NCBI GenBank assembly: GCA_963738315.1
Contig: CAVTVT010000004.1
Location: forward strand, 470,123 to 534,122
Direction of reading: 5' to 3'
Origin: Vicinamibacterales bacterium
GTDB lineage: Bacteria > Acidobacteriota > Vicinamibacteria > Vicinamibacterales > JAMQPK01
DNA: 64,000 nt
Below the pieces are notes generated by a model, which saw only the letters and a program-made list of their open reading frames with translations, did not search any database and was not told the origin of the DNA. The translations under genes were made by a program, and so were the position numbers. Shown piece after piece: positions 42,132 to 63,802 of this stretch. Within the stretch, counting starts at the first letter, position 1; every line of letters begins with the position of its first letter.

Positions 42132-43160
42132 CTACCGGGCTATCACGTACGGAACGTTGGCGATCGTGCCCGGCAGGAGCCCGAGCAGGCTGTATCCCAG
42201 GTTCTTCGCCTTGCTCCCGGGCACGAAGATGATGTCGTCGGCCCGCACGAGAAAGTCGGGCTTCTTGCCGGAGAGAATCTGTCCGAAGTCGACCGAGAGC
42301 TGCTCCCGCTGGCCCGCGTCGTTGTAGCGCACCAGGATGCCGTCGCCCATCTTCGCGGTCTTGGTCGGCCCGCCCGCCCAGGCGATCGCCTGCGAGATGC
42401 GCAGGTCCTGCTTGGCGGGAAGCTGATAGGCGCCGGATCGATTCACCTCGCCCACCACGTACACCATCTGGACCGGCCGGTCTTCGATGTGGACCACGTC
42501 TCCCCCCTTGACGGGCACGTTCAGGGAGATGTCGGCCTCGTCCAGGAGCTGCCGCAGGTTCACCTTGATGACCTCGTCGGCGCCGTCCGGAGTGTGGCGC
42601 TGGATGACCGCCTCGTCGCCGGCGTTCGCCGTGAGGCCGCCGGCCATCGACAGCACGTCGACGATCTTGAGCGGCAGCGTGATCTGGTACTGTCCGGGCT
42701 TGCCGACCGCGCCGAGCACGAAGACCGGCTGCGATCGATACTCCTTGACGAACACCGTGACCTGCGGCCGCTTGATCAGCTCGCCGTCGAGCGCCTCGGT
42801 CAGCCGCTGTTCGAGCTCGGCCGGGGTCAATCCCGCCGCCGTGATCGGCTCGAGCAGCGGCAGCTTGATGAGTCCCGCCGCGTTGATCCGCACTTCGTGC
42901 TTGTACTCGACCTCGAACACGCTGATCTCGATCAGGTCGCCCGGCCCGAGCCGGTACTCGACGTCCGTCTTGTCGAGCGCGCTCACCTTGGCGAGGCGCC
43001 CGTCGACCGCGGGCGCCGGCGGCGCGGCTACGGGCGGCGGCGCGGCCACGCGCGGCGGCCCGGCGGGAGAGGGCGACGCCGGGGCCGGCCCCACCGGCGT
43101 TTGGGCCCGCAGCACCGCCGAGCCGAGCAGAAGAATGGAGCACCAGATCGTCTTCTTCAT
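42132..43160 (-). CDS. wza: Polysaccharide export protein (Poly_export plus SLBB domains)
   Basis: Signal peptide, YRLGPGDLIEI, VFVLGAVGKPG, VYVVGEVNRSG, DDIIFVP. Confidence 0.88.
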   Translation of the reverse strand: MKKTIWCSILLLGSAVLRAQTPVGPAPASPSPAGPPRVAAPPPVAAPPAPAVDGRLAKVSALDKTDVEYRLGPGDLIEISVFEVEYKHEVRINAAGLIKLPLLEPITAAGLTPAELEQRLTEALDGELIKRPQVTVFVKEYRSQPVFVLGAVGKPGQYQITLPLKIVDVLSMAGGLTANAGDEAVIQRHTPDGADEVIKVNLRQLLDEADISLNVPVKGGDVVHIEDRPVQMVYVVGEVNRSGAYQLPAKQDLRISQAIAWAGGPTKTAKMGDGILVRYNDAGQREQLSVDFGQILSGKKPDFLVRADDIIFVPGSKAKNLGYSLLGLLPGTIANVPYVIAR

Positions 43161-43168
43161 CACAACCC

Positions 43169-45331: not shown

Positions 45332-45939
45332 GAACGTCTGAGCTCTGGATACCGCGGTTTGCTGAACAGCGCGAAGATGGTCTGCGCCAGAATCATGAGG
45401 TCGCTCGACAGGGTCCGCCGCGACAGGTAATCCAGCTCGATCTGCAGCTTGCGCGGCAGGATCTCGCGCCGGTAGGTCGCCTCCCAGTCGGGTCCGGTGA
45501 GCATCTGCTCTTCGTGCCGGTGCAGGAGCGTGGCCAGGCTGGTGATGCCCGGCCTCACTCGGAGCACCTGCCGCTCGTCCGCTGAGTAGTACTTTACATA
45601 TTCCGGATCCTCGGGTCGAGGTCCGACGAGGCTCATCTCGCCCTTGAGCGTGTTCACCAGCTGGGGCAGCTCGTCCAGCTTCGACCGTCGCAGGAGCCGG
45701 CCGACGCGCGTGATCCGCGCATCTCCGCTGGCCGTGATCCGCGGCCCCCGCGCCGCCGCATCGGCCACCATCGTCCGGAATTTGTACAACTCGAACAGCC
45801 GGCCGTTCCGGCCGACGCGCCGCGCCCGGTAGAGGACCGGCCCCCGCGAGCCCGCCTTCACGGCGAGGGCAATCAGGAGCATGAGCGGGCTCAGCACGGC
45901 CAGCCCGACGACCGACACGCTAACGTCCAGCCAGCGCAT
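45319..45939 (-). CDS. Initiating undecaprenyl-phosphate phosphoglycosyl transferase (small PglC/WcaJ-type)
   Basis: KFRTM, LRRSKLDELPQL, GEMSLVGPRPE, RPGITS. Confidence 0.92.
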   Translation of the reverse strand: MRWLDVSVSVVGLAVLSPLMLLIALAVKAGSRGPVLYRARRVGRNGRLFELYKFRTMVADAAARGPRITASGDARITRVGRLLRRSKLDELPQLVNTLKGEMSLVGPRPEDPEYVKYYSADERQVLRVRPGITSLATLLHRHEEQMLTGPDWEATYRREILPRKLQIELDYLSRRTLSSDLMILAQTIFALFSKPRYPELRRSCRT

Positions 45940-47241
45940 AGGAAGCCGAGGGACGCGTGCGCGCGATGTCCAGGACGGCGTCGATCACCTGTTCGACGTC
46001 CTCGTCGGTCATGCGGCTGTAAATCGGCAGCGAGATCTCGCGCCGGTATTCGCGGTAGGCGACCGGGAAGTCGTCGGGCCGGTAGCCGTACACGGTCTCG
46101 TAGTACGGGTGCACGTGGAGCGGGATGAAGTGGACGCTCGAGCTGATGTTCCGATCCTTGAGCTCCTGGATGAACTGCTCGCGGCTGATGCCGAGCGCCT
46201 CCTCGCGCACGCGGATCATGTAGAGGTGCCAGGCATGCCCCACGCCGTCGCGCTCGACGGGCGTCTCGAGCCCGGGCTCGCCGGTGAAGGCGGCGGTGTA
46301 GCGGGCCGCGATCTCGGCGCGGCGCCGGCGCATCCGGTCGAGCTTCCTGAGCTGCGCCAGGCCGAGCGCGGCCAGCAAGATCCGGCATGTTGTACTTGTA
46401 GCCGGGCGCCATGATCTCGTAGTACCAGCTGCCTTCGGCGGTGTACCGCTTCCAGGCGTCCTTGCTGATGCCGTGCAGGCTCATGATGCGGAACCGGTCC
46501 GCCTGCTCCTCGCTGTCGGTCGGTGATCATCCCGCCTTCGCCGGTGGCCAGCGTCTTGGTGGCGTAGAACGAGAAGCACGCCGCCCAGGGCACGCCGCCG
46601 CCAATCGGGGCGCCCACGGGACGTCCGTTGAACGACGCCGAGCAGGCGTGGGCCGCATCCTCGACCACCGCGAGCCCGTGCGCGCCGGCCGCCGACACGA
46701 TGGCGTCCATGTCGCAGGGATGCCCCGCCATGTGCACCGGGATGATCGCCTTGCCGGCGCCGCGATACACGTTCCTGCTCCGCCGCCCCTGCCGAGGCCG
46801 CGCCGACCGCTCGAGCGCCCGCCCGACCGCCAGCGTGCGCGGCTTCCGCCCCTCGTGGAGGCACCGGTTGAGATCCGCGATGGTGTCGGTGAGCGCGGCG
46901 GGATCGATGTTGAACGTGTCCGCCTGCACGTCGACGAAGATCGGCACGGCGTCGAAGTAGCGGATCACTTCCGCGGTGGCGGCGAACGTGTAAGGCGTCG
47001 TGAACACGAAATCGCCGGGCCGCACGCCGATCGCCTCGAGCGCCAGGTGCATCGCCGCCGTGCAGGAGCTCACCGCGACCGCGTATTTCGCCCCGACGAG
47101 ATCGGCGAACGCCTGCTCGAACTGTCTCGTCTTCGGACCGGTCGTGATCCAGCCGGAGTCGAGCACCTCCCGGATTTCGTTGAGCTCGTCGCCGCCGAGA
47201 TCCGGCAGCGCGAACGGCAGCAGCGTGGTCCGCCTGGTCAC
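45920..47241 (-). CDS. DegT/DnrJ/EryC1/StrS sugar aminotransferase (frameshifts near 46515 and 46380)
   Basis: SGWITTGPK, SSCTAAMHL, EDAAHA, SFYATKTLATGEGG, GYKYNM, ISLPIY. Confidence 0.92.
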
Positions 47242-49133: not shown

Positions 49134-49201
49134 GCGAGGGTAGCACGCCTCCCGGCGCGGGCGCTGGCATGCGGCCGTCCGTACACGTCACAATGACGCC
49201 G

Positions 49202-49966
49202 ATGGACGGCTTCGTCGATCTCCACACCCACGTCCTCCACGGCCTCGACGATGGCGCGAAGACGCGTGACGACAGTCTGGAGATGCTGCGCATCGCCGAG
49301 GCGAACGGCACCACCGATCTGGTGGCGACGCCGCACGCCAACAGCCGCTTCACGTTCGACCCGGCGCTCATCGACCGGCGCATCGCGGAGCTCGCGCCGC
49401 ACACCGGCGTGCGCCTGCACCGCGGCTGCGACTTCCACCTGCACGTCAGCAATATCGAGGACGCGCTGGCGAACCCCGGCAAGTACACGATCGACCACGG
49501 CCCGTACCTGCTGGTCGAGCTGCCGGCGACGGTCGTGCCGAGCGGCACCGATCGCATCCTGATGCAGCTCCTCGACGCCGGCATGCTGCCCATCGTCACG
49601 CATCCCGAGCGGAACGGCCACCTGCAGCGGCACACCGGCGACCTCGTGAGATGGATTGGCCTGGGCTGTGCGGTGCAGGTCACGGCGGCGTCGCTCACGG
49701 GCCTCTTCGGCCGCGCGGCCCGCGCCTCGGCTCACGCGCTCGTCAAAGCGGGGCTGGCGCACTTCGTCGCCAGCGATGCGCACGACGCCGAAGTGCGCAC
49801 GCCGAGTCTGCGCGAGGCGTACGCGTGCCTGATCGATCTGTTCGAGGAGGATCGCGTGAGGGCGCTATTCGTGGAGAACCCGCGCGCGGTGCTGGAAGGG
49901 GACGAGCTCGACGTCGACGCGCCGCCGCCCGCCGCGAGGAAGCGGCGCTGGTATCAGTTCTGGTGA
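49202..49966 (+). CDS. PHP-family protein tyrosine phosphatase (CpsB/CapC/YwqE type)
   Basis: DLHTHVL..DDG, ATPH, THPERN, ASDAH; likely partner of Wzc. Confidence 0.92.
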   Translation: MDGFVDLHTHVLHGLDDGAKTRDDSLEMLRIAEANGTTDLVATPHANSRFTFDPALIDRRIAELAPHTGVRLHRGCDFHLHVSNIEDALANPGKYTIDHGPYLLVELPATVVPSGTDRILMQLLDAGMLPIVTHPERNGHLQRHTGDLVRWIGLGCAVQVTAASLTGLFGRAARASAHALVKAGLAHFVASDAHDAEVRTPSLREAYACLIDLFEEDRVRALFVENPRAVLEGDELDVDAPPPAARKRRWYQFW

Positions 49967-50307
49967 GCGTCGGGGTGGATGGGCCGCCAGTCGTGGTACT
50001 GGAGGCGGCAGGCGTCGCACCGGACGAGCGGCGCGCCGGAGAGCGCGGCGAGGCTGCTGAGCGGATGCCGTGAGACCGAATCGATGTGATCGCGCTTGCG
50101 GCTCCGCTTCACGTGCACACTGCCGCACCGGACGCAGTGCGTATGCGTGGCCAGGACGAACCTGACGCCCGGGCGATCGAACAGGCGGCGGGTCTTCTTC
50201 GTCCGGCCGCAGCTCGAGCAGCGGAAGACGCGGCTGTACAGCAGCTTGTCGAACCAGCTCCGGCGGCGCCTCGCCATGGCGCCCCCGCAGCCCGGGCACA
50301 CGGGCAT
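49954..50307 (-). CDS. Small basic double Zn-ribbon protein
   Basis: CPGC..CSSC and CVRC..CDAC; Arg-rich. Confidence 0.6.
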   Translation of the reverse strand: MPVCPGCGGAMARRRRSWFDKLLYSRVFRCSSCGRTKKTRRLFDRPGVRFVLATHTHCVRCGSVHVKRSRKRDHIDSVSRHPLSSLAALSGAPLVRCDACRLQYHDWRPIHPDAHQN

Positions 50308-50324: not shown

Positions 50325-50971
50325 TTACCTCGTTTTTACAGGGAAGCCAGCCCAGGCGTTGAGCACGCCGAACCACTCCTTCGAGACCGCGTTCGCGTCC
50401 TGGGTGGTCTTCCACCACCGGCCCGGCTGGAACGGGTCGCGGCGGGCGAAGCGCACCATCAGCGAGGGCGTCGCGCCGACCAGCACGCCCCAGAGCACCT
50501 TCACGCGGCGCGTGTGATATTTCGAGGTCACCACGATCGCGCGCTCGCCGCCGGCGCGCCGCAGCTCGGCGGCAATCGCCTGCACCTCTTCCGCGGTGTT
50601 CTTCGTGTAGCCGGGCAGCACCCGGATCGCGCCGGCCGGCACGTCGAGCCGCTCCAGCACCCGGCGGCTGGAACTGGTACTCCGGCACCCGCGGCACGGC
50701 GAGATCCGACAGCGCCGCGTCCTCCGCGTCTGTACGCGCCCCGCGTGAGCCACACCTCGGGAGCCAGCCGCTGCCCGTAGATGGCCGCCGCCTCCATCGC
50801 GCGGAACGGCACGCCCCCGGCGAGCACGACGATCGCCCGGGCCGGCTGGAGCGTGTCGGCCACGATGAGCCATCTGGCGGCGGCGGTGAGGGCCAGCGGC
50901 GTCACGAGACAGAGGCCCAGGAGCACAACCGCGCCGGCCAGGAGCCGCCGAACGGACGCCGGGAACGTCAA
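50325..50971 (-). CDS. YdcF/DUF218 family protein (frameshifted near 50700)
   Basis: N-terminal TM, AIVVLAGG..R, NTAEE, VVTSKYHTRR, SKEW. Confidence 0.82.
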
Positions 50972-50979
50972 GGCGCCGG

Positions 50980-51150
50980 CTACTTCGCCGATGTTCGCTT
51001 GGTGTTGCCGGGGGGCGGCGGCTGGCCGTCCTTGGCTCCCTTGTTGCCGACCGCACTGGTGACATCCGCCAGGTTCCCGTAGATCCGGAACTGCGGACGG
51101 CCGTACTGCTCGCCCCGGGCGGGTGGATTACGCGATTCCTCTGCGCTCAT
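50980..51150 (-). CDS. Lasso peptide precursor (56 aa)
   Basis: AGGAGG RBS; leader YGRPQFRIYGNLADVT fits YxxPxL(F)xxxGxxxxxT; Thr at -2; core AVGNKGAKD.. has Asp at position 9; overlaps the cyclase stop. Confidence 0.88.
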   Translation of the reverse strand: MSAEESRNPPARGEQYGRPQFRIYGNLADVTSAVGNKGAKDGQPPPPGNTKRTSAK

Positions 51151-52995
51151 GTGTGTCTGCCTCCTCCTGATTGCCGCCGGCGCTCTCGAGCTGCGAGAGC
51201 CACCGGCCCAGCACGCCGAACCGGAACCTCGCGCCGGCATCGCTGGGGTTCAGCGCCGATTCTTCTGTCATCTTCTTCACGTCGCCGTACTCCGCGAGCC
51301 GTGCCACGGGCCGGAGTGCGGCCCCCTGGCGGCCCGGCTGCGCCAGCACCGGGTCCCGGCCGAGCGGTGTCTTGCGCCGCGTGCGGACGGCTTCCGGCAG
51401 TGCGCCCCTCAGCGCCTCGCGCAGCAGGTGCTTCCGGCGGCACCAGGGCAGCGCCGGCACCCGCAGCATGAACCTCAACAGCCGGATGTCGAGGTAGGGA
51501 TGGCGCACCTCGATCGGCGCGCCGGTATAGGCCGGCTCCAGCGATTCAAACAGCGACTGCCAGAGCGGCGTCAGCATCGACGCGTAGCCGCGCGGCCGCA
51601 CCGGATGCGCGGAAACGGTGTCGCGGCACCAGTCGCTCCAGCGCCGTTCGAGCTCGAGGCGCGAGACGAGCTCTGGACGAAGCCAGTCGGGAAACCTCGT
51701 CCCGTCCCCACCGGCGGCGCCGCCGCCATTGCCGAAGAGGCGCGGCACCATCCCGGCGAGCGGAAGCCGCCGGTGCGCGCGCAGGTGCCGCGCGCCGTCG
51801 GCCGCCAGGCGCCCCCATCGCTTGCCCGCGACGAGATGCCGCACGTACGGCTGCCATTCGTACAGGAGCGCGTTGTCCGGCCCTTCGCCGTAGAAGACGA
51901 CCCGCCCCTGCGCGGCGACGTCGGCGTAGAACGGCTTCGCGGCGCCCGCGTGCACGGCCGACTCGAGCGGCTCCGGCGTCGGCGCCTGCGCCTCCGCATG
52001 CGCCGACGGAGCATCGTCGGCCACCCAGGACCGGATCGGAATGCCGAGGTGCCGGGCCACCATGCCCGCATAGTGCCCTTCCGTGTCGGGCATCAGCCGG
52101 GTGTAGATCGACGTGAACGCCTTCACCGGGTGCGCGGCCGGGCCGTGCCGCAGCAGCCGGGCGGCCGTCGCGGCGAGACCCGGCGAGTCGAGGCCGCCGC
52201 TCATGAACACCGACACCCGCCCGGTGCGCAGGCGATCGGCGACGGCCGTGTCGACGAGCTCGCGGAACTCGTCCACGTAGTCGCGGCTGCGGCGGTAGAA
52301 GAGCGGCTCCTCGATCGGCAGCGTCCAGTATCGGCTGCAGGCCCACACCCTGCGAGGCCGACCACCTGAGCGCGTGCGCCGGCGGCAGCCGCTGGATGTC
52401 GGCGAACGAGGTCGTCGCGAGCTCCTGGTTGTCGCCGAACAGCAGGAAGTCGGCGATGGCGAGATCGTTCAGCCGCGACGAGACGCCGGGGTGGCGCCGC
52501 AGGCACTCGATCGAGCTCGCGACGGCGACCGCCGATCCCAGCCGCGCGTAGTAGAGCGGCTTCACCCCCATCTGGTCGCGGGCGCAGAAGAGCGTCCGCC
52601 GGCGCGCGTCCCAGACGGCGAAGGCGAAGTCTCCCAGCAGGCGGTCGACGCATCGCTCGCGCCATCGCATGTAGGCGTGCAGCAGCAGCGCGGCATCGGA
52701 CGCTCCCGTATCGGCCGAGGCGCCGGCGCTCCGAAGCGCGCGCACCAGATGGCGGCGATCGTCCACGCGCGCGTCGGCCACGATCCAGGTGCTGCCGTCG
52801 ATCGTCAGCGGCTGGCGGTCGTGGCCCGCTTCGGCGCCGGTCGCCAGGAGCGCGTGCCCGAGCGCCACGCCGTCGCCGATCCAGACCTGCTGCCGATCCG
52901 GTCCTCTCGAGGCGAGCGCGCCAGTGAGGTCCGCGGGCCAGCTCCGGATCGGCCGGCGCGCCATCGGTCTCGAGCAGCGCCAGGATGCCGCTCAT
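51128..52995 (-). CDS. Lasso peptide cyclase (C protein; frameshifts near 52940 and 52350)
   Basis: MSGI start without Ntn Cys, GDFAFAVWD, ARDQMGVKPLYY, MSGGLDS, GEGPD, EVRHPYLD. Confidence 0.88.
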
Positions 52996-53942
52996 GCCGG
53001 CGACTCCCGTGCGCAGATCGGCGACGAGCGCCTCTCTGACCTGCTCCAGCACATCGAACGTGCGCGGATAGCGAAGGCGGCGCACCGGGATCCGCCTGGC
53101 GAGCGCGCCCGCCGCGGCGAACTGGCGGCTCAGCCGCGCGGCGTCCCTCACGCGCGCGTTGAACGTGGCGCGCACGATCTCCATCACCGAGTCCGATCCC
53201 GGCACGTCTTCGATCGTCACCGTCTCATCGCCGGCATAGTCGAGCACGACGAAGCGGCGGATCGGCACCGGCGAGCGGTGCTGTTCGCCTCCCGCGAGCG
53301 GAATGACCAGCTTGTCGGTCTCCGGGTTCATCGCCGCGCCCGGGCGGTCGCCGAACCGATGGGCGCCGGCGGAGTCGGGAAAGAGCTTGATGCGCGGCGG
53401 ACCGGGATAGCCGCACGGCTCTCCCCGCACGCTCCGCACGAGCAGCAGATCGTCGCCGAGAATGGCGCTCCCCGCGCGAAGGAACGAGGCGGCCAGCGTC
53501 GACTTGCCCTGGCCGCTGTCGCCGAAGAGCGCCAGCCCCTGTCCGTCGACGACCAGGGTCGTCGCGTGCAGCGGCTCCCAGCCCTGCTTCACGAGCGCGA
53601 ACGACAGCACCGCGCCGAGCAGATAGGTCTGGAAGCACTCGACCGTCGCCCGATCGAGCAGCGCGCAGGAGATGTGCCGGCCGTCGGCCGACACGACGAA
53701 CTGGAACAGATCGGGCCAGCGCAGGAGCTCCGACCCGTCCGGATGGACGAACCGGCGATACCAGGCGCCCTCCGGTCCGCCAGGCTCGAAGCCGGCCGTC
53801 CGATCGTCCATCGAGTCCGCCGTCTCGAGCGCCAGCGTCACGTCGGCCTCGCCGTGCGGCGCCGGCGCCGGTCGAACGGCAGCGGGATCTCGCTGCGGAT
53901 CGACAGGCCGTACCCCGCGTACGTCAGTCCTGCCATGCTCAT
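52996..53942 (-). CDS. HPr-kinase-like lasso peptide kinase (frameshift near 53870; no stop before the cyclase)
   Basis: YGLSIRSEIPL start, LHATT, GDSGQGKSTLA, LGDDLL. Confidence 0.85.
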
Positions 53943-55735
53943 GCGGTTGCCAGTATCGGCGTGCGCCGCTCCGGCATCTGCTCGCCCCAGACCGCGGCGT
54001 ACGTCGCGGAGCGCTCGAGCAGCTCCTCGTGCGACCCGGAGGCGGCAATCGTGCCGTGCTCGATCAGATGGATGACATCGGCGTGCATCGCCGTCTTCAG
54101 CCTGTGGGTGATGATGATGGCCGTGCGGCCGCGGGCCACCTCGCGGAATCGCGCGAACCAGTCGAGCTCCGACCAGGGATCCAGCGCGCTCGTCGGCTCG
54201 TCGAGCACCATGATCGGCGCCGGCCGGAGGAAGGCGCGCGCCAGCGCGAGCCGCTGCCATTCGCCGGCGCTCAGCTCCATGCCGTCGCAGAACCACTTGC
54301 CGAGGAGCGTCCGGTAGCCGGCGGGCAGCGTGCGGATGAACGCCGCGGCTCCCGACAGTTCGCTGGCCCGTCGGATGTCGCCGCTCGAAGGCCGCCGCGC
54401 CAGCGCGCTGATGCTGATGTTGTTGGCGATCGACTGGCTGTAGCGGACCGGCTCCTGGAAGAGCGGCGTCACCAGCGCCCGCAGCTCCTGCAGATCGATC
54501 CTCCGCAGATCGACATCGTCTATTTCGATCGTCCCTTCCGCAGGGTCGTACAGCCGGCAGAGCAGCTTGAGCAGCGTGCTCTTGCCGCCGCCGTTCGGCC
54601 CGACCAGCGCCACCGTCCGCCCCGCCGGAATCTCGAGGTCGAAATGCTCGAGCGCCGGCCGCGTGCTGCCCGGATAGCTGAACGTGACGTCGCGGAAGCG
54701 GATGCGCCGCGCCGCCGCGGGCGTCGTGTGCACGGCGGCGGCGTTGCGAATCTCCGGCTGGAGCTCGAGGAACTCGAAGAGGTTCTCCAGGAACAGGCTG
54801 CTGGCATAGAGATGCGCCACCGCGCCGAGCAGCCCGCGCATCGTCGACAGCCCCTGGGCGAACGCCTGGTAGAAGGCGGCGAGCTGTCCGAGCGAGAAGG
54901 CGCCGCGGAGCGTGCGCAGCACCACCCATCCGAACGCGCCCGACGCGATCAGCATGCCGGAGGCGGCGGCCAGCAGCTCGGCCACGCCCCGCCGGCGGAC
55001 CAGCGCCAGCCGTTCGCACCGGAGCTGCCGGCGGATCTCCTCGTGCGCGCGCCGGAAGAGCGGCCCGAGATCGAACAGCCGCAGCTCCGAGGCGTGGGCC
55101 GCCGAGGTCAGCACGCTGTCGTAGTAGTACCCGCGACGCTCCGTGGCCGTCGTCTCGCGCCACCACGCCTGCTGGATGAGCGCGTGCTTCCCGACGACGT
55201 AGAGCACCGGCACGGCGCTGAGGAAGAGGGCGAGCGGCAGCCACCAGCCGTAGGCGACGAGCACGGCGCCCATGGCGGCCAGCGTGACGCAGCCCTGGAA
55301 GACCTCGCCCAGCGTGTCGAGCAGCTCCGAGGGGCGGTAGGTCGCTTCGTCGCGCGCGCGGTGCAGATGGTCGAAGAACGACGGCGACTCGTAGAACGCC
55401 AGATCGAGGCGTGCGGACTGCTCGTGTATCCGCGCGGTGATCCGATCCTTGAGGCGCTCGGCCTGCGCCACCCGGGCCCAGCCGAGCGCCGCCCGGGCCG
55501 CGGCCACCGCGGCCATGACGATCGCCGAGAGCGCGGCCCACAGCAGCAGCGGCTCCACGGCCGGCCAGGCGCCGTGCGCCGCGGCGGCGGCCACCACGTG
55601 ATCCACGATCTGCCTGGTGATGTAGACCGTCGCCAGCGGCGCGAGGCCGAGCACCGCCAGCAGCGCCGCCCAGATCAGCATCGACCGATCGCCCTCGGCG
55701 CGCAGCAGCCTCACGATGTTCGAGAGCGATCGCAT
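53939..55735 (-). CDS. ABC exporter, fused TMD and NBD (lasso cluster)
   Basis: TM domain, GPNGGGKST, LSAGEWQR, LDEPT, ITHR. Confidence 0.92.
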   Translation of the reverse strand: MRSLSNIVRLLRAEGDRSMLIWAALLAVLGLAPLATVYITRQIVDHVVAAAAAHGAWPAVEPLLLWAALSAIVMAAVAAARAALGWARVAQAERLKDRITARIHEQSARLDLAFYESPSFFDHLHRARDEATYRPSELLDTLGEVFQGCVTLAAMGAVLVAYGWWLPLALFLSAVPVLYVVGKHALIQQAWWRETTATERRGYYYDSVLTSAAHASELRLFDLGPLFRRAHEEIRRQLRCERLALVRRRGVAELLAAASGMLIASGAFGWVVLRTLRGAFSLGQLAAFYQAFAQGLSTMRGLLGAVAHLYASSLFLENLFEFLELQPEIRNAAAVHTTPAAARRIRFRDVTFSYPGSTRPALEHFDLEIPAGRTVALVGPNGGGKSTLLKLLCRLYDPAEGTIEIDDVDLRRIDLQELRALVTPLFQEPVRYSQSIANNISISALARRPSSGDIRRASELSGAAAFIRTLPAGYRTLLGKWFCDGMELSAGEWQRLALARAFLRPAPIMVLDEPTSALDPWSELDWFARFREVARGRTAIIITHRLKTAMHADVIHLIEHGTIAASGSHEELLERSATYAAVWGEQMPERRTPILATA

Positions 55736-55737
55736 GA

Positions 55738-56178
55738 TCAGCCCGCGAGGCTCCTGAACGGCACGAACGCCGCGTCGCGCGCCTGCAGCGACGGGTCAAG
55801 CCGGCGGCCGCCAATCCCGACCCAGGCGTGCGCCTCGAAGATGCCGCCGGGCCTGGCCGCGCCCAGTTCCACGCGGCTCTCGATCCCCTGCTGCTCGAGC
55901 AGCGCCCAGACGACCAGCGCGCGCGGCAGGCAGGCGGTGCGGCATACGTGGTGATCCGCGGCGGCGCGCACCAGGCGGCAGGTCGTATCGGCCGCGTCGT
56001 TACGGGACGTGGAACCCGGCATGGCGGGCCGCCGCGACCCCATCGCGAGCCATCTCTGCGTCCGCCGCAGCCCCAGACCGGCGACGCTGAGCCGGACGAG
56101 CGGCAGCAGGAGCCACGCGCGGACGAACATGTTGCGTTCCTCGGGGCTCAACAGGCCGAATTGCCTCAGCCGCTTCAT
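55738..56178 (-). CDS. Lasso peptide leader peptidase B2 (transglutaminase-like)
   Basis: CLPRAL (Cys) and EAHAWV (His). Confidence 0.92.
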   Translation of the reverse strand: MKRLRQFGLLSPEERNMFVRAWLLLPLVRLSVAGLGLRRTQRWLAMGSRRPAMPGSTSRNDAADTTCRLVRAAADHHVCRTACLPRALVVWALLEQQGIESRVELGAARPGGIFEAHAWVGIGGRRLDPSLQARDAAFVPFRSLAG

Positions 56179-56456
56179 CCGCGGATCTCCAGGAGCCCGT
56201 GCGCGAGCAGCGTGCCGACGAGATCGGCCAGATCCTGCCGGAGCTCCCGCTCGTCCACGTCGTACACGCCCTTCAGCGATTCGAGCGCCGCATCCACCGA
56301 GCCGGCCTTCGTCATGGCGTCCCACATGCGTCCGCCCACCCTGTCGAGGCCGAAATAGGTCTCGCTCTGGAGATTCAGCAGCACCGCTTCGCCGTCGATT
56401 TCCGAGATCATCACGTGCTCCGGCGCGCGCACGCACGAGCTGAACGAGAACGTCAC
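56175..56456 (-). CDS. Lasso peptide RiPP recognition element B1 (PqqD family)
   Basis: IDGEAVLLNL..YFGLD.VG..MW..YDVD..GLLE; GTG start overlaps the upstream stop. Confidence 0.92.
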   Translation of the reverse strand: MTFSFSSCVRAPEHVMISEIDGEAVLLNLQSETYFGLDRVGGRMWDAMTKAGSVDAALESLKGVYDVDERELRQDLADLVGTLLAHGLLEIRG

Positions 56457-57574
56457 CTCAGCACCTCCCCCTTCATCACCCGCCACGATGCGCCCGCCGC
56501 CCGCCGCAGATAGGCAGCCGCCAGTCCCGCCGCGGTGTCGACGCCGTGCGCTCTGCGCATGAAGCCGGCGTCGGGCAGCGCGTGCTCGAGGAGCAGCCGC
56601 GCCTTCGCGCGAAGGCCGGCCGACCCGCGGACGTCGAGCAGCAGGCTGCGCGCCTCGCTGCGCACGCCTCCGAGGTACTCGCGCGAGGGCTCCCGCACAT
56701 CGCCCGCGCGCGCGCCCCGTGCGTCGAGGTGCCGCAGGATCCCTCCAGGGCACCCGACGAGCGCCACCGCCGACTGGATTCCGCCGGCGCAGACGCCGAG
56801 CAGCTTCTTTTCGGCGGCGAGCGCGGCGAAGCGGATCGCCTCGGGCTCCGGCATCGCTTCCACCAGCAGCCGGATGTCGTACAGCCACATCAGGACCGGC
56901 GAGTCGTCATGGTGCGCCACCCGGTGCGCGCAGGCGACGAGCAGCGCGTGCGGCAGTGACGGCATCTTCGCGCCCGGGCCGAGCGCCGGCACCGGCAGTG
57001 CGCCGGCGGCGAGCTCGTCGAACGAGAACATCGACGCGAACAGCGGGCGGTTGCTCACGGCCCAGTGCAGATCGATGACGTGCCACGTCGATCCGATCTG
57101 CCGCTCGAAGGTGCACTGCGTGTGTACCGATCCGCCCGACAGGCTGTTGAGGCGCGTGTAGCCGAGCGCCTCGAGCAGATCGGCCGCTGTCGGAAAGCTG
57201 GATCGCCTGACGAGCAGGTCGGTGTCGTACCGCGATCGCAGCGCCGGGGCCGGGTAGAGCGTGTAGCCGAGCGCCGCACCCTTGAACACGAGCGTCTCGA
57301 CGCCTGCCTCGCGCAGGCGCTCGACGACGCGCTGGAGCTCGCGGCGGCGCACCAGCTCGATGGCCGCTTCGCGCGTGACGTGGCGCTCGAGCGCGTCGCT
57401 GATGCGCGCAGGCACATCGCCCGGCGCCCGCTCCTTGAGGACGCGCCAGACCAGCCCTTCCACCCGCTGCTCCGCGGCGGCGGCAAGCAGCCGATCCTGG
57501 ACGGCAGGGTCGTCCAGCGCGCCGCGCGGCGGCAGCTCGCCTCGCAGGATGGCGCTCGCCAGTGTGTCGCTCAT
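56453..57574 (-). CDS. Nucleotidyltransferase (NTP_transf_5-like, lasso-associated)
   Basis: FKGAAL..YP....R..DTDLLV, IDLHW, WLYDI. Confidence 0.87.
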   Translation of the reverse strand: MSDTLASAILRGELPPRGALDDPAVQDRLLAAAAEQRVEGLVWRVLKERAPGDVPARISDALERHVTREAAIELVRRRELQRVVERLREAGVETLVFKGAALGYTLYPAPALRSRYDTDLLVRRSSFPTAADLLEALGYTRLNSLSGGSVHTQCTFERQIGSTWHVIDLHWAVSNRPLFASMFSFDELAAGALPVPALGPGAKMPSLPHALLVACAHRVAHHDDSPVLMWLYDIRLLVEAMPEPEAIRFAALAAEKKLLGVCAGGIQSAVALVGCPGGILRHLDARGARAGDVREPSREYLGGVRSEARSLLLDVRGSAGLRAKARLLLEHALPDAGFMRRAHGVDTAAGLAAAYLRRAAGASWRVMKGEVLR

Positions 57575-57578
57575 GAGT

Positions 57579-59018
57579 TCAGGCGGAAAGCGCGCGATCG
57601 AGCGGCGCGGCGCCGAGCAGGCCGAGCACTGCCGGCGCGCCCACGCCGACGTCCGAGGCGACCCGTCCCGCCGCGTCGAGCAGCACCGCCGAGGGGGTGC
57701 CGGTGGCGCCGAACACCCTGGCCGCGCCGAAGCTCGGGTCGAGGACGACGCGCGAGCGGAAGCGCTGCGCGCGATTGGCGTCCGCCGCGCCCGCGGCCAC
57801 GATCACGAGCTGCGGGCCGGTCTTCGCGCGCGTGCGCTCCCACGATCGCACCTCGCCGAGCATCGCCTTGCAGAAGCCGCAGCCAGGGTTCCAGAAGAGC
57901 AGCACGCTCGGGCGGCCGCGGAGGGCGGCGATATCGAACGCCGCGCCGTCGAGATCCCGAAGATCGAGCGGCGGCGCCAGGTCGCCCTGCGCCACCGGAT
58001 CGGGCACGGTTTCGCCGAAGACGAGCGCGCGGATCTCGTCGCCTCCCGCGGCGAGCGGGGCCGCCACCAGGCCTTCCTTAATAAGGATGGCGCTCGGCGA
58101 CGCCTTGACCCGGTAGGCGTCGCCGACCTCCCGGTCCTCCTGCAGCAGCATGTCTGCCAGGCCGTGCCGGGCGGCCTTGGCGCGGTTCGCTTCCAGATCG
58201 CCGCGGCTCACGGGCACGATCACGAGCTTGCCGGCGTGCACCCGCTGCCATCGCGCCACCTCGGGGAGGAGCGCCTCGCACGCGGTGCAGCCCGGCTCGA
58301 CGAACAGCAGCATCACCGGCTTGCCGAGCGCTTTCACGGCGTCGAGCGCCACCGGGATGCCGTCCAGGCCTTCGAGCGTGAAGGGTGGCGCCTCGGTCGC
58401 CACCGGCAGGCCGGCTGCCGGCGTCTCGTCGGCCGTCGTGCCCGCCTTCGCCTCGAGCGCCTCGATGCGCAGCATCATGCGGCCGTTCTGCGCGAGCAGG
58501 CTGACGAGCATGAACGCGCCGCCTGCGGCTATCGCCGCGATCGCGAGGCCGAGGAAGAGCGCCACCTGCTGGCTGCCGTCGAGGCTGCCGATCCAGGCGG
58601 CGAGCCCCGGGCCCGTCTGACCCGGTCCGCGCGCGACGATGGCGGCGGCGATGGCGGCGAGGGCGCCGTTCCTGGCCACCGTGCTCCAGCCGACCGGCTC
58701 GGAGTGGAGCTTGCCGAAGCAGTGGCAGTCGGGCGTCCTGCCGCGCGCGAGGTTGGCGACGATGCCGGTGATGAAGACGGCGAGCATCGAGACCGCGGCG
58801 ATCGCGCCGAACCAGGCGGATGCGCTGCCGAGCAGGGCGGCGGCGGTGGCGAGCTCCGCGATCGGGAGCGCGAGTGCGAGCGGGCCCGCGACGGCGGCCG
58901 GCACGCCGAACTCGCGCATGGAGCGGCGGGAGCCGGGCCGGTCGAAGAGCTTGGCGATGCCGGCGACGGCGAAGATGGACGCGAGGAGAAGGCGTGCTGA
59001 CAGCAGAATCAGGTTCAT
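57579..59018 (-). CDS. MauE/DoxX membrane domain fused to two thioredoxin-like (TlpA/MauD-like) domains
   Basis: FAVAGIAKL, PDCHCFG, ARNG; PGCTAC and PGCGFC CxxC motifs. Confidence 0.88.
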   Translation of the reverse strand: MNLILLSARLLLASIFAVAGIAKLFDRPGSRRSMREFGVPAAVAGPLALALPIAELATAAALLGSASAWFGAIAAVSMLAVFITGIVANLARGRTPDCHCFGKLHSEPVGWSTVARNGALAAIAAAIVARGPGQTGPGLAAWIGSLDGSQQVALFLGLAIAAIAAGGAFMLVSLLAQNGRMMLRIEALEAKAGTTADETPAAGLPVATEAPPFTLEGLDGIPVALDAVKALGKPVMLLFVEPGCTACEALLPEVARWQRVHAGKLVIVPVSRGDLEANRAKAARHGLADMLLQEDREVGDAYRVKASPSAILIKEGLVAAPLAAGGDEIRALVFGETVPDPVAQGDLAPPLDLRDLDGAAFDIAALRGRPSVLLFWNPGCGFCKAMLGEVRSWERTRAKTGPQLVIVAAGAADANRAQRFRSRVVLDPSFGAARVFGATGTPSAVLLDAAGRVASDVGVGAPAVLGLLGAAPLDRALSA

Positions 59019-59102
59019 TGCTAATGCTCTCGATTGAAGATCGACCTAGTAGTGCGTGATGCTCACGCCGTCGATGAACGGACGCTGTCGAGGGAAGGCT
59101 GG

Positions 59103-60755
59103 TTATTGTCGAGCGAGCGCAGATCGCATGAGTCTCGAATCCACTCGTTCCAGACACTCGCTTGCGCCATTGCGGACTTCAACGCCACATCGTCTCCATT
59201 CCGAGTTCAGCCATCGCGGGTCCAGCGCGCTCCGGATTACACTCTTCCAGTCGATGAGCACGCCGATGTCTTCGTCGTCCACATATTGTCCAAGTCGCGT
59301 CGGAGTAGCCGCTCCAAGGACGGCCTCGTTTACCTTTCCATCTAGATTCACGACGTTCTCGTTGAAGAATCCTATGACGCCGCTTTGAAAAGCCCCGACC
59401 CTCTGGCTCGAGAAACGCTCGTGGATGACTCCGGCGCTCACCGTGTGGCTGTTGCCGATTCGCCCTGAGTGAAGGCTCAGCACTGCCCATACCGAAAATG
59501 CGAGCGGCATAGACCCGAAGGCGACAATGTGACCCGCGCGGGGCAGCCGCTTGAGCGTGGCCAGTAGAACAACTCCAATGAGTGGTGTCGCGACCGGCAA
59601 AATAGGACTCGAATAGCGCTGATAGAAGTGGGCTGCCCAGAAGAAGTACGTGTAGACGCCAGCGAGGCCGACGGCCGCGATTCCCCATGCGACCAGTGGC
59701 GTGTTCTCTCGAATCGCAGCTTGAATTGAGGCCGATTCCCGCCACGCATATCGCCCCAACACCAAGAGCGAGACTGCAGCCGCTACAACGAACACTCCAC
59801 CTGAATTTGAATATATCCACGGCGTCAGGTGGCTCAAAAGCGCCGCTGACATCGCACTGACACGACCGGCTGCGGTATGCCACCCGATCATTCCAGCTTG
59901 CGCTCGGCCGGATGACGGAACCCAGTGACCGGACTCCACCTGGTTATAGAGCAGCCAAGGGCTCAAAACTGCAGCTGCCGTTGCGCCGACCACGACGATT
60001 TCGGAAAGGGACGCCCTCCGCGTCAGTAGCGAGACGACAAAGTAGAAACCCAGAAGAACGCCAAAATCGAGACGTGCCCACGCGGTAAGGCCGGCTAACA
60101 GCCCAAACGACAGGCAATTGACCATTGTCTGCGGCCGGGACTGGTGCCGCAGAGTGAAGAGAATGCAAGCGGCGACCAGGGTCAGGTAGATACCGGTCTC
60201 CAGACCGTAGGTGAACCACCGGAAATTGGCGAAATTGAACACCGAGAGCGTAAATCCCAGAAGATAGGCACTAGCGCCGCTACCTTTCGGCGCTATGTGC
60301 TCAAGGATGCGTCCCACAAAGTGACCGTAAAGGAGGAGAATCAGCGCCCCGAAGACCAACACGCTGCGGACAAAGGCCCAGCGGTCCCCGAGATGCTGAA
60401 TGGGTTTCGCGATCAGCGCAAAGCACAACGTGCTCAGAGGTTGGACCCCCGTTGTTGGCATGTCCAGGTTGTAGACAAGCCCGTGCCCTCTGGCAATGTT
60501 CCATGCGACTGTGAGCATGTAGTAGCCGTCCTCGCCGACAGGCTTGTCGGCGAGATAAGGGAAGGCGTGCCCGTCTGCCATATCGCGTGGAAACCCTGGG
60601 TGAGAAGCAATCGCTAACGCCACAACGTATGCCAGGTAGACTCCAATGACGATTCCGAGAAACCAGCGGCCCCAAGCCGCTGTTTGCAGGCGCGTCTCTT
60701 CCGAATCGTTTCTTTCGGCTGACAGCTCGTTGCGCATGAAGTAATCCAGGTCCAT
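59103..60755 (-). CDS. Polytopic membrane protein, probable GT-C glycosyltransferase
   Basis: GEDGYY..AWNIARGHG, GLET, ARLD, NLDG; visibly lower GC than its neighbours. Confidence 0.65.
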   Translation of the reverse strand: MDLDYFMRNELSAERNDSEETRLQTAAWGRWFLGIVIGVYLAYVVALAIASHPGFPRDMADGHAFPYLADKPVGEDGYYMLTVAWNIARGHGLVYNLDMPTTGVQPLSTLCFALIAKPIQHLGDRWAFVRSVLVFGALILLLYGHFVGRILEHIAPKGSGASAYLLGFTLSVFNFANFRWFTYGLETGIYLTLVAACILFTLRHQSRPQTMVNCLSFGLLAGLTAWARLDFGVLLGFYFVVSLLTRRASLSEIVVVGATAAAVLSPWLLYNQVESGHWVPSSGRAQAGMIGWHTAAGRVSAMSAALLSHLTPWIYSNSGGVFVVAAAVSLLVLGRYAWRESASIQAAIRENTPLVAWGIAAVGLAGVYTYFFWAAHFYQRYSSPILPVATPLIGVVLLATLKRLPRAGHIVAFGSMPLAFSVWAVLSLHSGRIGNSHTVSAGVIHERFSSQRVGAFQSGVIGFFNENVVNLDGKVNEAVLGAATPTRLGQYVDDEDIGVLIDWKSVIRSALDPRWLNSEWRRCGVEVRNGASECLERVDSRLMRSALARQ

Positions 60756-60758
60756 CGA

Positions 60759-63344
60759 TCAGCTCTCCGGTATCAGCGCGACGTTGTCGATCCAGATGCT
60801 CCCTGCGATCTGGTTGTCGAACTTCCACGAATGGTTTCTTCGAAGCTGGATCTGGAGCAGCTCCGCGTGCGGGGGGATGTCGACCTCCGCTTCCACGAGA
60901 CGCCAGCCGCCCGCGGCGCTCACGGGTTCGGACTTCAGGTCGAGGCCGCCGCCCGAAATCGAGAGGAACACTCCCTGATCGGTCGTGAGACCGCCGCTCC
61001 TGATCCGCGCCTGCAGCCTGAATCGCCCGGGCGGGACGAAGATCATCTGGCTCAGCGGAATCGCCGTCACGTTGCCGGAGCCGTCGAAGGCCACGTGGAC
61101 CGAGCGCGCCCCTTCGAACGGGGCGGTCTCGTCTGTCACGACCGCCACACCAGGCCCGCTCGACAGCCGCCAGTCGAACGGCCCCTTCGCCGTCTCGAGC
61201 TCGAAACCGCCGTTGTAGACGTAGTTCCCGTTCAGGTAGTCGCCGCACCGCGCCGCCGAATAGTCGGCCCACGACCGCGCCGCCGCGTCGTCTCGCTTCA
61301 CGGCCACCAGCGCCTGCGCGTACTTCGCCGCCGACTCGTCGTCCGCCCAGCCTCTTGCCAGCAGGATGCGCCAGGCTTCTTCGGCCTGGACCAGGTCCTG
61401 TTCGCCGATCAGAAATCCCAGATAGCGGCGGGCGAGCGCGGGATCGGGTATTCCTCTGGCCAGGACCCTTTCGACGGGAGCGTGATGCGCTCGGTAGTTC
61501 GCGAAGACAAGAGGCGCGAACGATGGATCGATCGCGATGGCACGAGCGGAAAGGTCGAGTCCGCCGTCGTAGTCTCCGCGCTTCAAGCTCGACTGCGCGG
61601 CCCTGATCGCGAAGAATGGAATGTGGGGGCCGAGCGTGAGGGCGCGCGCGAAGGCATACCGGGCGCCCGCCTGGTCACCTCGGCGCTGCAGCGCTTCCGC
61701 CAGGTCGAGCCACCGGTAACCGCCCGCTGGATCCCGTGCGAGCAGCCTCTGCAGCTCGGATACCGGAACGGCCGAGATGTCGTCGCCGTACTGGTGCTGG
61801 AGCACCGATGAGATGCCGAACGGATTGCAGATGCCGAAGCGGCAGAAGGCCCGCTCCGCTGCCACGTTTTCCGTGAAGCCGTTCATGAAGACGAGCCAGG
61901 CACAAGCGTAGACCAGGGAGACCGCCGACAACCCCAGAAGATGCGGTCGAAGCGATTTCGTGTTCGCGTCCCCGCCTTCGCGTGCAGCTCCTGCGTGCCA
62001 AGCCGTTGACCAATATGCGCTGCCGAAGCCGAGGAGCCAGGCGAACGTCATCGCATTGGCGGGCACGTAGAGATTGAAATCGGCAAAGCTGTGAATGCCA
62101 ATCGCGGTCATCGACCCGAGGACGCCGAGTGCTTTCCATCGGTCGTCGGAGGAGTCATGTCTGCGGAGCGCGCGCCAGGAGACCGTCGCGACGCCCCCCA
62201 CGAGAATCGCGCCGAGCAGAAAGCCCACGATCCCCAGCTCGGAGAGAAACTGCAGGTAGTCGTTGTGGGCGTACACCCAGGTGACGTTCGTTCCCGCGGT
62301 CTGGTAGCGGAGCAGAGCGGGATAGTAGGTGCCGAGGCCGGTTCCGACGAGAGGATAGTCGTGCGCCATGGCGAGGGTGTTCCTGGCGATGGGCCATCTT
62401 CCCTCGGCAGTGGGATCGTCAGTCGAGGCGCCGAGGTTTCGCACGAGCGCATCGGGGGGCAGGGCAAACAAGAGGGTGGCAAGGAGGGCCGCCGTGCCGA
62501 ACCCGTACGCCAACTTTGCTTTCGCGGAGCGACCCGCCCCAATGGCGAGAACCGCCATCAACCCCAGTGAGCAGATGGCCGCCAGGAGGCCTGCCTTCGA
62601 CAATGAGAAGGCGATCGCCACCAGCATCATGAGAGAGGCGGCCGCGAAAGCCGCTCCGAGCCCCAGAGGTGCGAGCGGAGATCCGGCTCTCCCCTCGCGG
62701 CTCCGGACAAAGAACGCTGCCGACGCGGCGGCAGCGAGCGGCAGCACCATCTCGAGGAAGCCGGCCAGGTGGTTCTTGTTGGCGTAACTTCCCGATACGA
62801 CCTGCGCACTTGCGGCGTGCTGCAGCAGCGCGATGGTGGCTTGCCACACGCCGAGCACGACGAGCGGCGCGATCGGCAGCCAGGCACGCCTGGTCCGCCT
62901 GCTCAGCTCCCGTGCCACGAGAAACACCACGGCGTAGCCGGCGACGTGGAGCAGTTGCATCCAGGTGCTGGGAGGGAAGAGCGAGAACGGCACGAAACCC
63001 TGCCTGGTGCCGACCATGGCCAGGGAACGGGCGACCTCCGCACGCATCGGATCGAGAATCCCCAACATCCAGAGCGGCAGAGGAAGCAGTTGAAGCGCCA
63101 CGAACAGCGGGAGGAGCAGACCACCGCCGATCGCGACGCGTTCAACGGTTCGCCGTTCGACGGCTGGCTTCAACCAGCAGCCGGCCGCCAGCCCCGCCGC
63201 GCCGAGCGGCAGCAACCCGACGTTCCAGTCCACCGGGTCGCCGCCGCCGGACCAGAGCATCAGGAGCACAAGCGACACCATCAGCGTAGTGCCGCACAGT
63301 ACCGCCGCGATCCAGACTCGCGCATTCGCAGGCGGTGCTAGCAC
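60759..63344 (-). CDS. O-antigen ligase / oligosaccharyltransferase-like protein with TPR repeats and a C-terminal carbohydrate-binding-like domain
   Basis: GSYANKNHLAGF, SLSKAG, GTGLGTY, AHNDYLQ..ELG, HSFADFNL; YNGGFE..FDW CBM-like end; GTG at 63344 chosen because the longer ORF overlaps the upstream gene. Confidence 0.85.
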   Translation of the reverse strand: MLAPPANARVWIAAVLCGTTLMVSLVLLMLWSGGGDPVDWNVGLLPLGAAGLAAGCWLKPAVERRTVERVAIGGGLLLPLFVALQLLPLPLWMLGILDPMRAEVARSLAMVGTRQGFVPFSLFPPSTWMQLLHVAGYAVVFLVARELSRRTRRAWLPIAPLVVLGVWQATIALLQHAASAQVVSGSYANKNHLAGFLEMVLPLAAAASAAFFVRSREGRAGSPLAPLGLGAAFAAASLMMLVAIAFSLSKAGLLAAICSLGLMAVLAIGAGRSAKAKLAYGFGTAALLATLLFALPPDALVRNLGASTDDPTAEGRWPIARNTLAMAHDYPLVGTGLGTYYPALLRYQTAGTNVTWVYAHNDYLQFLSELGIVGFLLGAILVGGVATVSWRALRRHDSSDDRWKALGVLGSMTAIGIHSFADFNLYVPANAMTFAWLLGFGSAYWSTAWHAGAAREGGDANTKSLRPHLLGLSAVSLVYACAWLVFMNGFTENVAAERAFCRFGICNPFGISSVLQHQYGDDISAVPVSELQRLLARDPAGGYRWLDLAEALQRRGDQAGARYAFARALTLGPHIPFFAIRAAQSSLKRGDYDGGLDLSARAIAIDPSFAPLVFANYRAHHAPVERVLARGIPDPALARRYLGFLIGEQDLVQAEEAWRILLARGWADDESAAKYAQALVAVKRDDAAARSWADYSAARCGDYLNGNYVYNGGFELETAKGPFDWRLSSGPGVAVVTDETAPFEGARSVHVAFDGSGNVTAIPLSQMIFVPPGRFRLQARIRSGGLTTDQGVFLSISGGGLDLKSEPVSAAGGWRLVEAEVDIPPHAELLQIQLRRNHSWKFDNQIAGSIWIDNVALIPES

Positions 63345-63802
63345 CCTGCAAATCCGGTCCGACAATTGCCCGAGCCACCCGTAGACGATTGGCAGGTCCC
63401 GTTGGTCGTACAACAGCACATATTGCTGCCGCAGCTTCCTGAGCCGCACGCGCACTTGATTGAGGTAACCGTGCATTTGCTCCCGGGCGTGCAATTTCCT
63501 GAGCCTCCGGCTCCGCCAGTGCACGTCGCTGTCCTCGTCGGACATCCAGCCGGACACGTAGCCGTAGCCGCACCAAGCGACGCGACTATGAGATCGTCGT
63601 CGGCCACGCCGCCGCTACAGTGGCCAGTGCTCACAGCCGTCCCGCTTGTCGCCGTCGTCCCGCACGTCGCAGCAGCGGCAGAAGCTGGAAACAACGAGAC
63701 CAGGAACGTTCCACCGACCAGCTGAAACAGCGACTTGATTACCTCGCGCCGCGGCGCGGGCCGCCCAAGGGTCCTCGCAACCTCATCAATCAGAAAGCTC
63801 AT
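63338..63802 (-). CDS. Tat-type exported Cys-rich, Ser/Thr/Gly-rich small protein
   Basis: AAGGGAGGAG RBS; PRREVIK twin-Arg, hydrophobic region, ASAAAA cleavage site; 16 Cys in the mature part. Confidence 0.82.
   Translation of the reverse strand: MSFLIDEVARTLGRPAPRREVIKSLFQLVGGTFLVSLFPASAAAATCGTTATSGTAVSTGHCSGGVADDDLIVASLGAATATCPAGCPTRTATCTGGAGGSGNCTPGSKCTVTSIKCACGSGSCGSNMCCCTTNGTCQSSTGGSGNCRTGFAGC

Follow-up and report, generated by a model that had tools for sequence, protein, structure and literature searches.

A kinase- and nucleotidyltransferase-type lasso peptide cluster at the end of a polysaccharide locus in a soil acidobacterium

Introduction

We describe a lasso peptide gene cluster from a soil Vicinamibacterales bacterium (Acidobacteriota). 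It lies in a stretch of 64,000 nucleotides (assembly GCA_963738315.1, contig CAVTVT010000004.1, positions 470,123-534,122) that we refer to as ‘the window’, and to which all coordinates refer unless another contig or locus is named. Seven genes on the minus strand (50980-57574) encode the precursor peptide (A), the cyclase (C), an HprK-like kinase (K), an ABC exporter (D), the leader peptidase (B2), a recognition protein (B1) and a nucleotidyltransferase (NTase; N). In kind, this is an ordinary lasso cluster of the type that carries both a kinase and an NTase. It closes an 80-kb glycan locus, all on one strand, and the linkage of clusters of this type to polysaccharide genes is recurrent, lineage-wide and type-specific. 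We consider it probable that these genes form a kinase- and NTase-tailored lasso pathway, that the exported peptide acts with exopolysaccharide, and that the broken reading frames found in part of the cluster are assembly errors.

The genome (G000) is assembled in four contigs totalling 4.27 Mb, with a GC content of 68% and an estimated completeness of 89%. Related public records are mainly metagenome-assembled genomes of Vicinamibacterales and other Acidobacteriota. The window is designated G000:C4:470123-534122, and loci of related bacteria, or of the second site in the same genome, are given L-numbers. Domains were called by Pfam and NCBIfam profile scans of the window proteins.

The lasso biosynthesis genes

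Gene A (50980-51150) is an open reading frame (ORF) of 56 aa behind the motif GGAGGAGG, and it aligns with 18 related precursors. The asparagine-synthase-like cyclase (51128-52995) occupies three frames (52995-52933, 52934-52368 and 52348-51128). Its best NCBIfam match, NF033535, is split over two of these—positions 25-212 and 217-398 of the profile, scoring 201 and 84 bits against a cut-off of 525—and the SGGLDS motif is kept. The kinase (52996-53942) matches Hpr_kinase_C (E 5e-5) and HprK_rel_A (E 1.4e-9), in both cases under the curated cut-offs. It is 37-47% identical to the kinases of 14 related lasso loci and 43% identical to that of a second cluster in the same genome; a P-loop, a His and an Asp-Asp pair are visible by eye. 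The exporter (53939-55735), an MsbA-like protein of 598 aa, matches ABC_tran at 97 bits; among the closest clusters, L013 and L014 have pumps with 53-54% identity to it.

The B protein is divided in two. B2 (55738-56178), with a Transglut_core3 domain, scores 66.7 bits to NF033537 (cut-off 33). B1 (56175-56456) scores 51 bits to PqqD (cut-off 23.4), and its match to lasso_PqqD_Bac (E 7e-16) is under the cut-off of that profile. The NTase (56453-57574) belongs to PF14907 (NTP_transf_5; 134.9 bits, cut-off 31.2). Close orthologues are lacking (identity to the best match, 44%), and comparison with PDB sequences gave no match up to E 1. In an alignment with 15 relatives, Asp117 and Asp119 do not vary. 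The GTG start of B1 overlaps the NTase stop codon. Several marks of a ‘split-B’ lasso pathway are present: a precursor with a leader motif, Thr at -2, a small first core residue and an acidic residue within core positions 7-9 (Asp9), a PqqD-like RiPP recognition element in B1 and a transglutaminase-like peptidase in B2. We regard the run at 50980-57574, perhaps extending to 59018, as probably such a pathway, of the paeninodin/pseudomycoidin kind.

A first-pass annotation, made from the letters of the window, had read a longer stretch as a single system. Most of the genes that it named (NTase, B1, B2, ABC exporter, kinase, cyclase, precursor, a MauE protein with two thioredoxin domains, YdcF and a Zn-ribbon protein) were recovered by profile match or ORF reading. 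It also described the run as co-oriented and tight, which is accurate for junctions that overlap (GTGA, ATGA) or are separated by 2-17 nt; the sole exception is a gap of 84 nt between the PMT-like and MauE genes (59018-59103). A promoter and terminator scan of 49-64 kb found one and eight sites, against 0.7 and 4.9 in shuffled sequence, and was uninformative.

The glycan locus

Upstream, the glycan locus continues past the edge of the window as far as about C4:452 kb; a third PF14907 gene, with a weak match, and a further Wzy_C gene are found there. It encodes glycosyltransferases, asparagine-synthase-like amidotransferases, sugar-nucleotide enzymes and a carbamoyltransferase, together with a Wza-like protein, a Wzc-like tyrosine autokinase and an initiating sugar transferase (42288-45984, minus strand). 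The first-pass annotation had placed a glycan locus and a Wzc phosphatase beside the lasso genes. Both are there, and the locus is longer than the window could show. Two further proteins are encoded within it: one of 1471 aa with three F5/8 type C domains and PKD domains (23434-27849), and, among the sugar genes, a B12-binding radical SAM methyltransferase (11805-14027) that matches the KedN5 family at 170 bits, under the cut-off.

Linkage to polysaccharide genes in related bacteria

Loci were collected with the NTase as anchor. A query with the single NTase gave 264 pattern matches, none of which was confirmed; an alignment-based query gave 190 confirmed matches, and the best 80 of these form the NTase-anchored set (44 of them span at least 20 kb). 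Glycan genes were scored by tblastn with family query sets (E<1e-6). In the counts that follow, a ‘polysaccharide gene’ is Wzy_C, Wzc or a sugar transferase, and a ‘lasso core’ is a cyclase plus B1 or B2. Wzy_C was found in 38 of the 80 loci, Wzc in 42 and a sugar transferase in 34, and 45 had at least one of the three. A lasso core was present in 39, and 25 of these also had polysaccharide genes. For comparison, at least one of the three occurs in 72 of 1404 random 21-kb windows (5.1%) of G000, and Wzy_C and Wzc together in 0.6%; each of 25 relatives has from one to 10 Wzy_C copies.

The linkage is specific to one type of lasso cluster. Lasso B2 is found in 96 of 301 genomes of the class, and a control set was anchored on it: 40 sites, one per genome, chosen by score, at least 30 kb from the contig start and from genomes new to the sample. 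Polysaccharide genes accompany 10 of the 14 kinase-plus-NTase loci in this set and two of the 26 others (Fisher p = 6e-5, a value that overstates the case because the genomes are kin). That such clusters would be enriched near glycan genes was a prediction of the first-pass annotation, and it is borne out; the finding that would have spoken against it, lasso genes lying apart from glycan loci in relatives, was not made.

In several loci the two sets of genes are interleaved rather than merely adjacent (L033, L064, L086, L097 and the second cluster of G000, L017). The closest whole cluster, L033 (the same as L013, from the same genus), reads LuxR, LuxR, Wzy_C, Wza, Wzc, NTase, B1/B2 and ABC exporter (53% identical), followed by cyclase, precursor, PRMT-like methyltransferase, kinase and a CapD-like dehydratase. 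L064 reads GT4, sugar transferase, geranylgeranyl-reductase-family gene, kinase, cyclase, methyltransferase and NTase, facing PqqD, Wzy_C and Wzc; on one strand of this locus, the PqqD ORF and the end of the Wzy_C ORF have 4 nt in common. Similar gene sets occur in L086, L097, L106, L041 and L051. The midpoints of the NTase and Wzy_C genes are less than 1.5 kb apart in 11 of 32 loci.

The Wzy_C proteins at these loci are also related to one another. In a tree of 61 proteins (38 from NTase loci, 18 from elsewhere in relatives and five from G000), 37 NTase-linked proteins and one unlinked form a single clade (SH-aLRT 98), and the remaining unlinked proteins fall in two other, paralogous clades. 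The linked proteins were collected with the window protein as query, which may favour similar sequences.

Some further genes recur at these loci. A geranylgeranyl-reductase-family flavoprotein (TIGR02032, 194 bits), present in 36 of the 80 loci, adjoins the initiating sugar transferase (e.g. L106 8454-9818, L064 3673-4842, L086 7796-9016 and L041 6708-8441) and may reduce the polyprenol that serves as lipid carrier. In 20 of the 80 (e.g. L033 15911-17065, L058 14468-15640 and L064 8215-9816) the cyclase and kinase are joined by a PRMT-like methyltransferase (PrmA plus PRMT_C), which the window lacks. In some loci, such as L035 (8720-9784) and L106 (13227-13805), DUF5658 and PilZ genes separate Wzy_C from the NTase or ABC pump, a hint of control by cyclic di-GMP. 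The second kinase-plus-NTase lasso cluster of G000 (C3:630000-643300) is contiguous with a sugar transferase, the reductase-family gene, Wzy_C, Wzc and a CarboxypepD_reg protein; a GHMP kinase gene adjoins its PqqD gene.

The precursor peptide and its acceptor residue

The leader of the window precursor has a YxxPxF motif and a Thr at position -2. The predicted core is 24 aa long, begins Ala-Val-Gly and would form an Ala1-Asp9 ring; its tail includes T-K-R-T-S, the last residue is Lys, and the precursor contains no Cys. The exact protein is already on record in the protein collection, where a word search returned only this self-match. Together with its relatives it makes a family of 19 precursors, which share the leader PYxxPxLxx[YH]G with Thr at -2, a core x-K-G-x-N-x-x-[DE]-G and a tail P-x-T-[RK]. 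In published cases, such kinases phosphorylate either the terminal Ser or Ser3 (PMC9266682, PMC10368454, PMC13381572). As both are absent here, the tail Thr before Arg/Lys is the candidate acceptor. Other linked loci have different core families, some with Met-rich tails: runs of four to seven Met occur in precursors beside Wzy_C/Wzc in L033 (15739), L107 (20280), L086 (20070) and L077 (20195).

Comparison with known systems

Kinase-tailored lasso peptides are phosphorylated on the terminal Ser (PMC9266682, PMC6993621). In pseudomycoidin, PsmK and PsmN place a phosphate and a hexose, and PsmN—described as an ‘uncharacterized NTP transferase’—is needed for the hexose on the phosphate (PMC6993621). 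The bsf cluster of Bradymonas sediminis likewise has K and N, and uses Ser3 (PMC10368454). Clusters in Butyrivibrio carry NTase, HprK and glycosyltransferases (PMC7533575). Finally, capsular polysaccharide loci of Bacilli are reported to contain paeninodin-like lasso clusters as well as those of a linear relative, LPP (PMC13381572, Nat Commun 2026), and a role in biofilms is called tempting, and untested, by the authors of that report.

The window cluster resembles psm (Bacillus pseudomycoides) and bsf in its gene set (A, B1, B2, C, D, K and N) and its YxxPxL-type leader. The two invariant Asp residues of its NTase may be the equivalent of the metal-site pair that was mutated in PsmN. It differs from both in phylum, in gene order, in the MauE-thioredoxin gene coupled upstream, in its setting within a Gram-negative locus of the Wzy/Wzc type, and in the lack of a terminal Ser and of Ser3. 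With the capsule-locus clusters of Bacilli it shares the co-localization of kinase-plus-NTase peptide clusters with polysaccharide loci, and a suspected role in the envelope or biofilm (PMC13381572). Only Bacilli or Bacillota are named in that paper; the terms Acidobacteri-, Gram-negative, Pseudomonadota and O-antigen have no occurrences there. The acidobacterial partners differ from those in Bacilli: they are a Wzc-like kinase, a sugar transferase, the geranylgeranyl-reductase-family gene and Wzy_C proteins of a dedicated clade. Literature searches on lasso peptides with exopolysaccharide or O-antigen ligase, and on PF14907, found nothing bearing on the linkage.

‘Candidate new system’, the term of the first-pass annotation, is therefore too strong, since kinase-plus-NTase lasso clusters (PMC6993621, PMC10368454) and their embedding in capsule loci (PMC13381572) have both been published. 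The central idea, a peptide cluster within a polysaccharide locus, is already in print for Bacilli (PMC13381572), and the window holds its acidobacterial variant. What is new is the occurrence in Acidobacteriota, an enrichment specific to one cluster type, a Wzy_C clade dedicated to such loci and a candidate acceptor at a different position.

Flanking genes

Immediately upstream of the NTase, at a distance of 4 nt, is a minus-strand gene (57579-59018) for a MauE/DoxX membrane domain (MauE, 95 bits) followed by two thioredoxin-like domains (AhpC-TSA and Thioredoxin_2). A thioredoxin-like match lies beside the NTase in five other loci at E<1e-4, in two of them at E<1e-6. MauA, MauD and MauE belong to methylamine dehydrogenase. 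The window protein combines a MauE domain with a thioredoxin that resembles MauD (TIGR02661), although its 67.8 bits are far under the cut-off of 188.6. A MauA-like substrate is not credible, because the Cys-rich ORF nearby is doubtful (see below) and the lasso precursor has no Cys.

Next comes a polytopic membrane protein of 550 aa (59103-60755, minus strand), which the first-pass annotation took for a GT-C glycosyltransferase. Its language-model look-alikes in the Atlas (0.99) are named PMT family and there is a weak NCBIfam match (LA_3751/2 family, E 9.5e-6); Pfam gave no match even at E 5. We call it PMT-like, and at most GT-C-like. It occurs in eight of 301 genomes of the class, counting G000 itself and G271 (flagged unpublished), and it had no lasso, NTase or Wzy_C neighbour in the five loci fetched.

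The Wzy_C protein (60759-63557, minus strand; start uncertain) had been read as an O-antigen ligase with TPR repeats and a carbohydrate-binding module. The Wzy_C domain and the TPR are confirmed: PF04932 scores 69.3 bits, and TPR_14 scores 23.9 bits when that piece is scanned alone. The carbohydrate-binding module is not: Pfam, even at E 5, matches nothing in the final 193 aa, and a single-sequence AlphaFold model of the C-terminal 373 aa shows strands at a mean pLDDT of 55, too low for a fold search. PF04932 spans both ligase and Wzy polymerase activities. In related cassettes the linked Wzy_C gene adjoins Wzc, as that of a polymerase would.

Overlapping the Wzy_C gene is a Cys-rich ORF of 154 aa (63338-63802, minus strand), proposed earlier as a Tat-exported protein. 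It is probably not a gene. It has no relative among 5.8 billion protein clusters, only three marginal matches (E >1e-4) in 300 genomes of the class, and a negative codon score. In the 220-nt overlap, positional GC fits the Wzy_C frame (0.63/0.37/0.84) and not that of the ORF (0.38/0.85/0.62), and the Cys-rich half of the ORF is the part that overlaps. Its N-terminal signal-like stretch may be real.

Downstream of the precursor gene are a DUF218/YdcF-like gene (50325-50971, minus strand), in three frames, with 28.9 bits to DUF218 on the C-terminal piece; a Zn-ribbon protein of 117 aa (49954-50307, minus strand) with weak Zn_ribbon matches under the cut-offs; and, on the plus strand (49169-49966), the phosphatase mentioned above, a CpsB/CapC-type PHP tyrosine phosphatase (PF19567, 149.5 bits). 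DUF218, Zn-ribbon, CpsB and the Cys-rich ORF had no counterpart in the 100 related loci searched. These four and the PMT-like gene are not conserved with the lasso and NTase genes in the loci examined, and so cannot be counted with them as parts of one system. We instead treat the lasso genes, perhaps with MauE-thioredoxin, as one module, and the PMT-like and Wzy_C-TPR proteins as belonging to the glycan side.

Proposed pathway

By analogy with PsmK and PsmN (PMC6993621), the window peptide probably undergoes similar phosphate and sugar chemistry. B1 would bind the YxxPxL-type leader, and K would phosphorylate a core residue bearing a hydroxyl group, for which the tail Thr, a conserved one, is the candidate. 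N would then add a hexose or a nucleotide to the phosphate, drawing on the sugar nucleotides of the adjoining locus. B2 would remove the leader, C would close the Ala1-Asp9 ring, and D would export the peptide, which could then serve as an accessory of the matrix or capsule, or as a regulator, alongside exopolysaccharide rather than as an unrelated antibiotic. That the peptide functions with polysaccharide is what we infer.

A bolder version, which we rate as very much an outside chance, makes the lasso peptide a covalent partner of exopolysaccharide in Vicinamibacteria-like Acidobacteriota. The kinase and the PF14907 enzyme would build a phospho-sugar or nucleotide-activated handle on the tail, and the linked Wzy_C-family enzyme would join the undecaprenyl-linked polymer there, or else the peptide would be a primer or cap. 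Covalent attachment to glycan is speculation; if true, the product would be a lasso-peptide–polysaccharide conjugate.

Alternative explanations

Several observations weigh against a tailored peptide that acts with exopolysaccharide. The Wzy_C protein of the window itself lies outside the linked clade, as a long-branch sister (support 91, placement unsure), and in a stretch of lower GC (63-66% over 58-64 kb, against 72% over 50-58 kb, which holds the lasso genes). The linkage was not seen in five Thermoanaerobaculia loci. None of the 19 family precursors has Ser at the C-terminal end, and the window precursor lacks the terminal Ser or Ser3 by which paeninodin-type acceptors are recognized. Of the NTase loci without a lasso core, 20 of 41 still have polysaccharide genes. 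And the frame breaks all fall inside 3.7 kb, the next 9.5 kb upstream being clean, while rpoB and rpoC are intact.

These bear on three other explanations. According to the first, which we think rather unlikely, the product is an ordinary secreted antimicrobial or signalling lasso peptide, and it lies next to glycan genes through inheritance of an ancestral gene order or through a common variable island, the two being functionally unconnected. The dedicated ABC pump suits this, as do the lower GC of the Wzy_C/PMT-like stretch and the failure of the PMT-like, DUF218, Zn-ribbon and CpsB genes to accompany lasso genes elsewhere; most of the linked loci, moreover, come from one phylum and are kin, not independent. 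Against it, the linkage is confined largely to the kinase-plus-NTase type and persists although genes have often changed order and strand, the Wzy_C proteins that are linked group in a separate clade, and in L064 the PqqD and Wzy_C frames overlap. Co-localization has also been published for an unrelated phylum (PMC13381572).

The second explanation reverses the roles: the PF14907 enzyme, and perhaps the kinase, would mainly decorate polysaccharide or a lipid-linked precursor, and the lasso genes would be passengers. The lasso-less loci just mentioned raise it, because an NTase found there with polysaccharide genes may serve the glycan and not the peptide, and the direct NTase–Wzy_C neighbours counted above point the same way. 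Several of those loci are scored as lasso-less on short contigs, however; PsmN acts on a phosphopeptide (PMC6993621); and the window NTase is coupled to B1/B2 by the GTGA overlap. We hold this explanation to be improbable.

The third is decay: with kinase, cyclase and DUF218 reduced to pseudogenes, the cluster would yield no peptide. There are five breaks: one in the kinase, two in the cyclase and two in DUF218. The cyclase of L058 aligns to the window in three frames (52995-52933, 52934-52368 and 52333-51269), and the initial ~23 residues of the kinase are in a different frame, where a YGLSIR..PLP motif matches the N-terminus of the L058 kinase. That the breaks cluster (within 50.3-54.0 kb), that ABC, B2, B1, NTase, MauE-thioredoxin, PMT-like and Wzy_C are whole, and that rpoB and rpoC are too, makes local decay possible. 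A codon-score scan, on the other hand, found 736 frameshift-like events throughout the genome (17 per 100 kb, or about one per 5.8 kb), evenly spread over all large contigs and no denser in the window than elsewhere, and other window genes (DegT and a transketolase-like gene) are also split. For these reasons the five breaks are most likely assembly indels. The split genes have no in-frame stops, keep their catalytic motifs and retain high coding GC3 in each piece, and the completeness of 89% is given for an assembly of four contigs. Decay is accordingly an explanation to which we give little credence.

Apart from these five breaks, the kinase frame reads into the MSGIL start of the cyclase (52915-53010) in the same frame with no stop codon, which is either a fusion or a further assembly artefact. 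With some 736 frameshift-like events, the gene calls of the G000 assembly need care in general.

Significance

Lasso peptides have been studied mostly as free antibiotics. In the Acidobacteriota, a mostly uncultured soil phylum unrelated to that of the Bacilli, the phosphorylated, sugar-tagged subgroup is the only one among lasso clusters that travels with polysaccharide export genes and with its own clade of Wzy_C. The acidobacterial linkage makes a general rule, open to testing, of what had been an aside on Bacilli, and it supplies concrete partners for the building of matrix by soil bacteria: Wzy_C, Wzc, the sugar transferase and the PF14907 enzyme. The recurrent pairing of lasso and polysaccharide genes is a hint that the peptide has its function together with the slime layer and not by itself.

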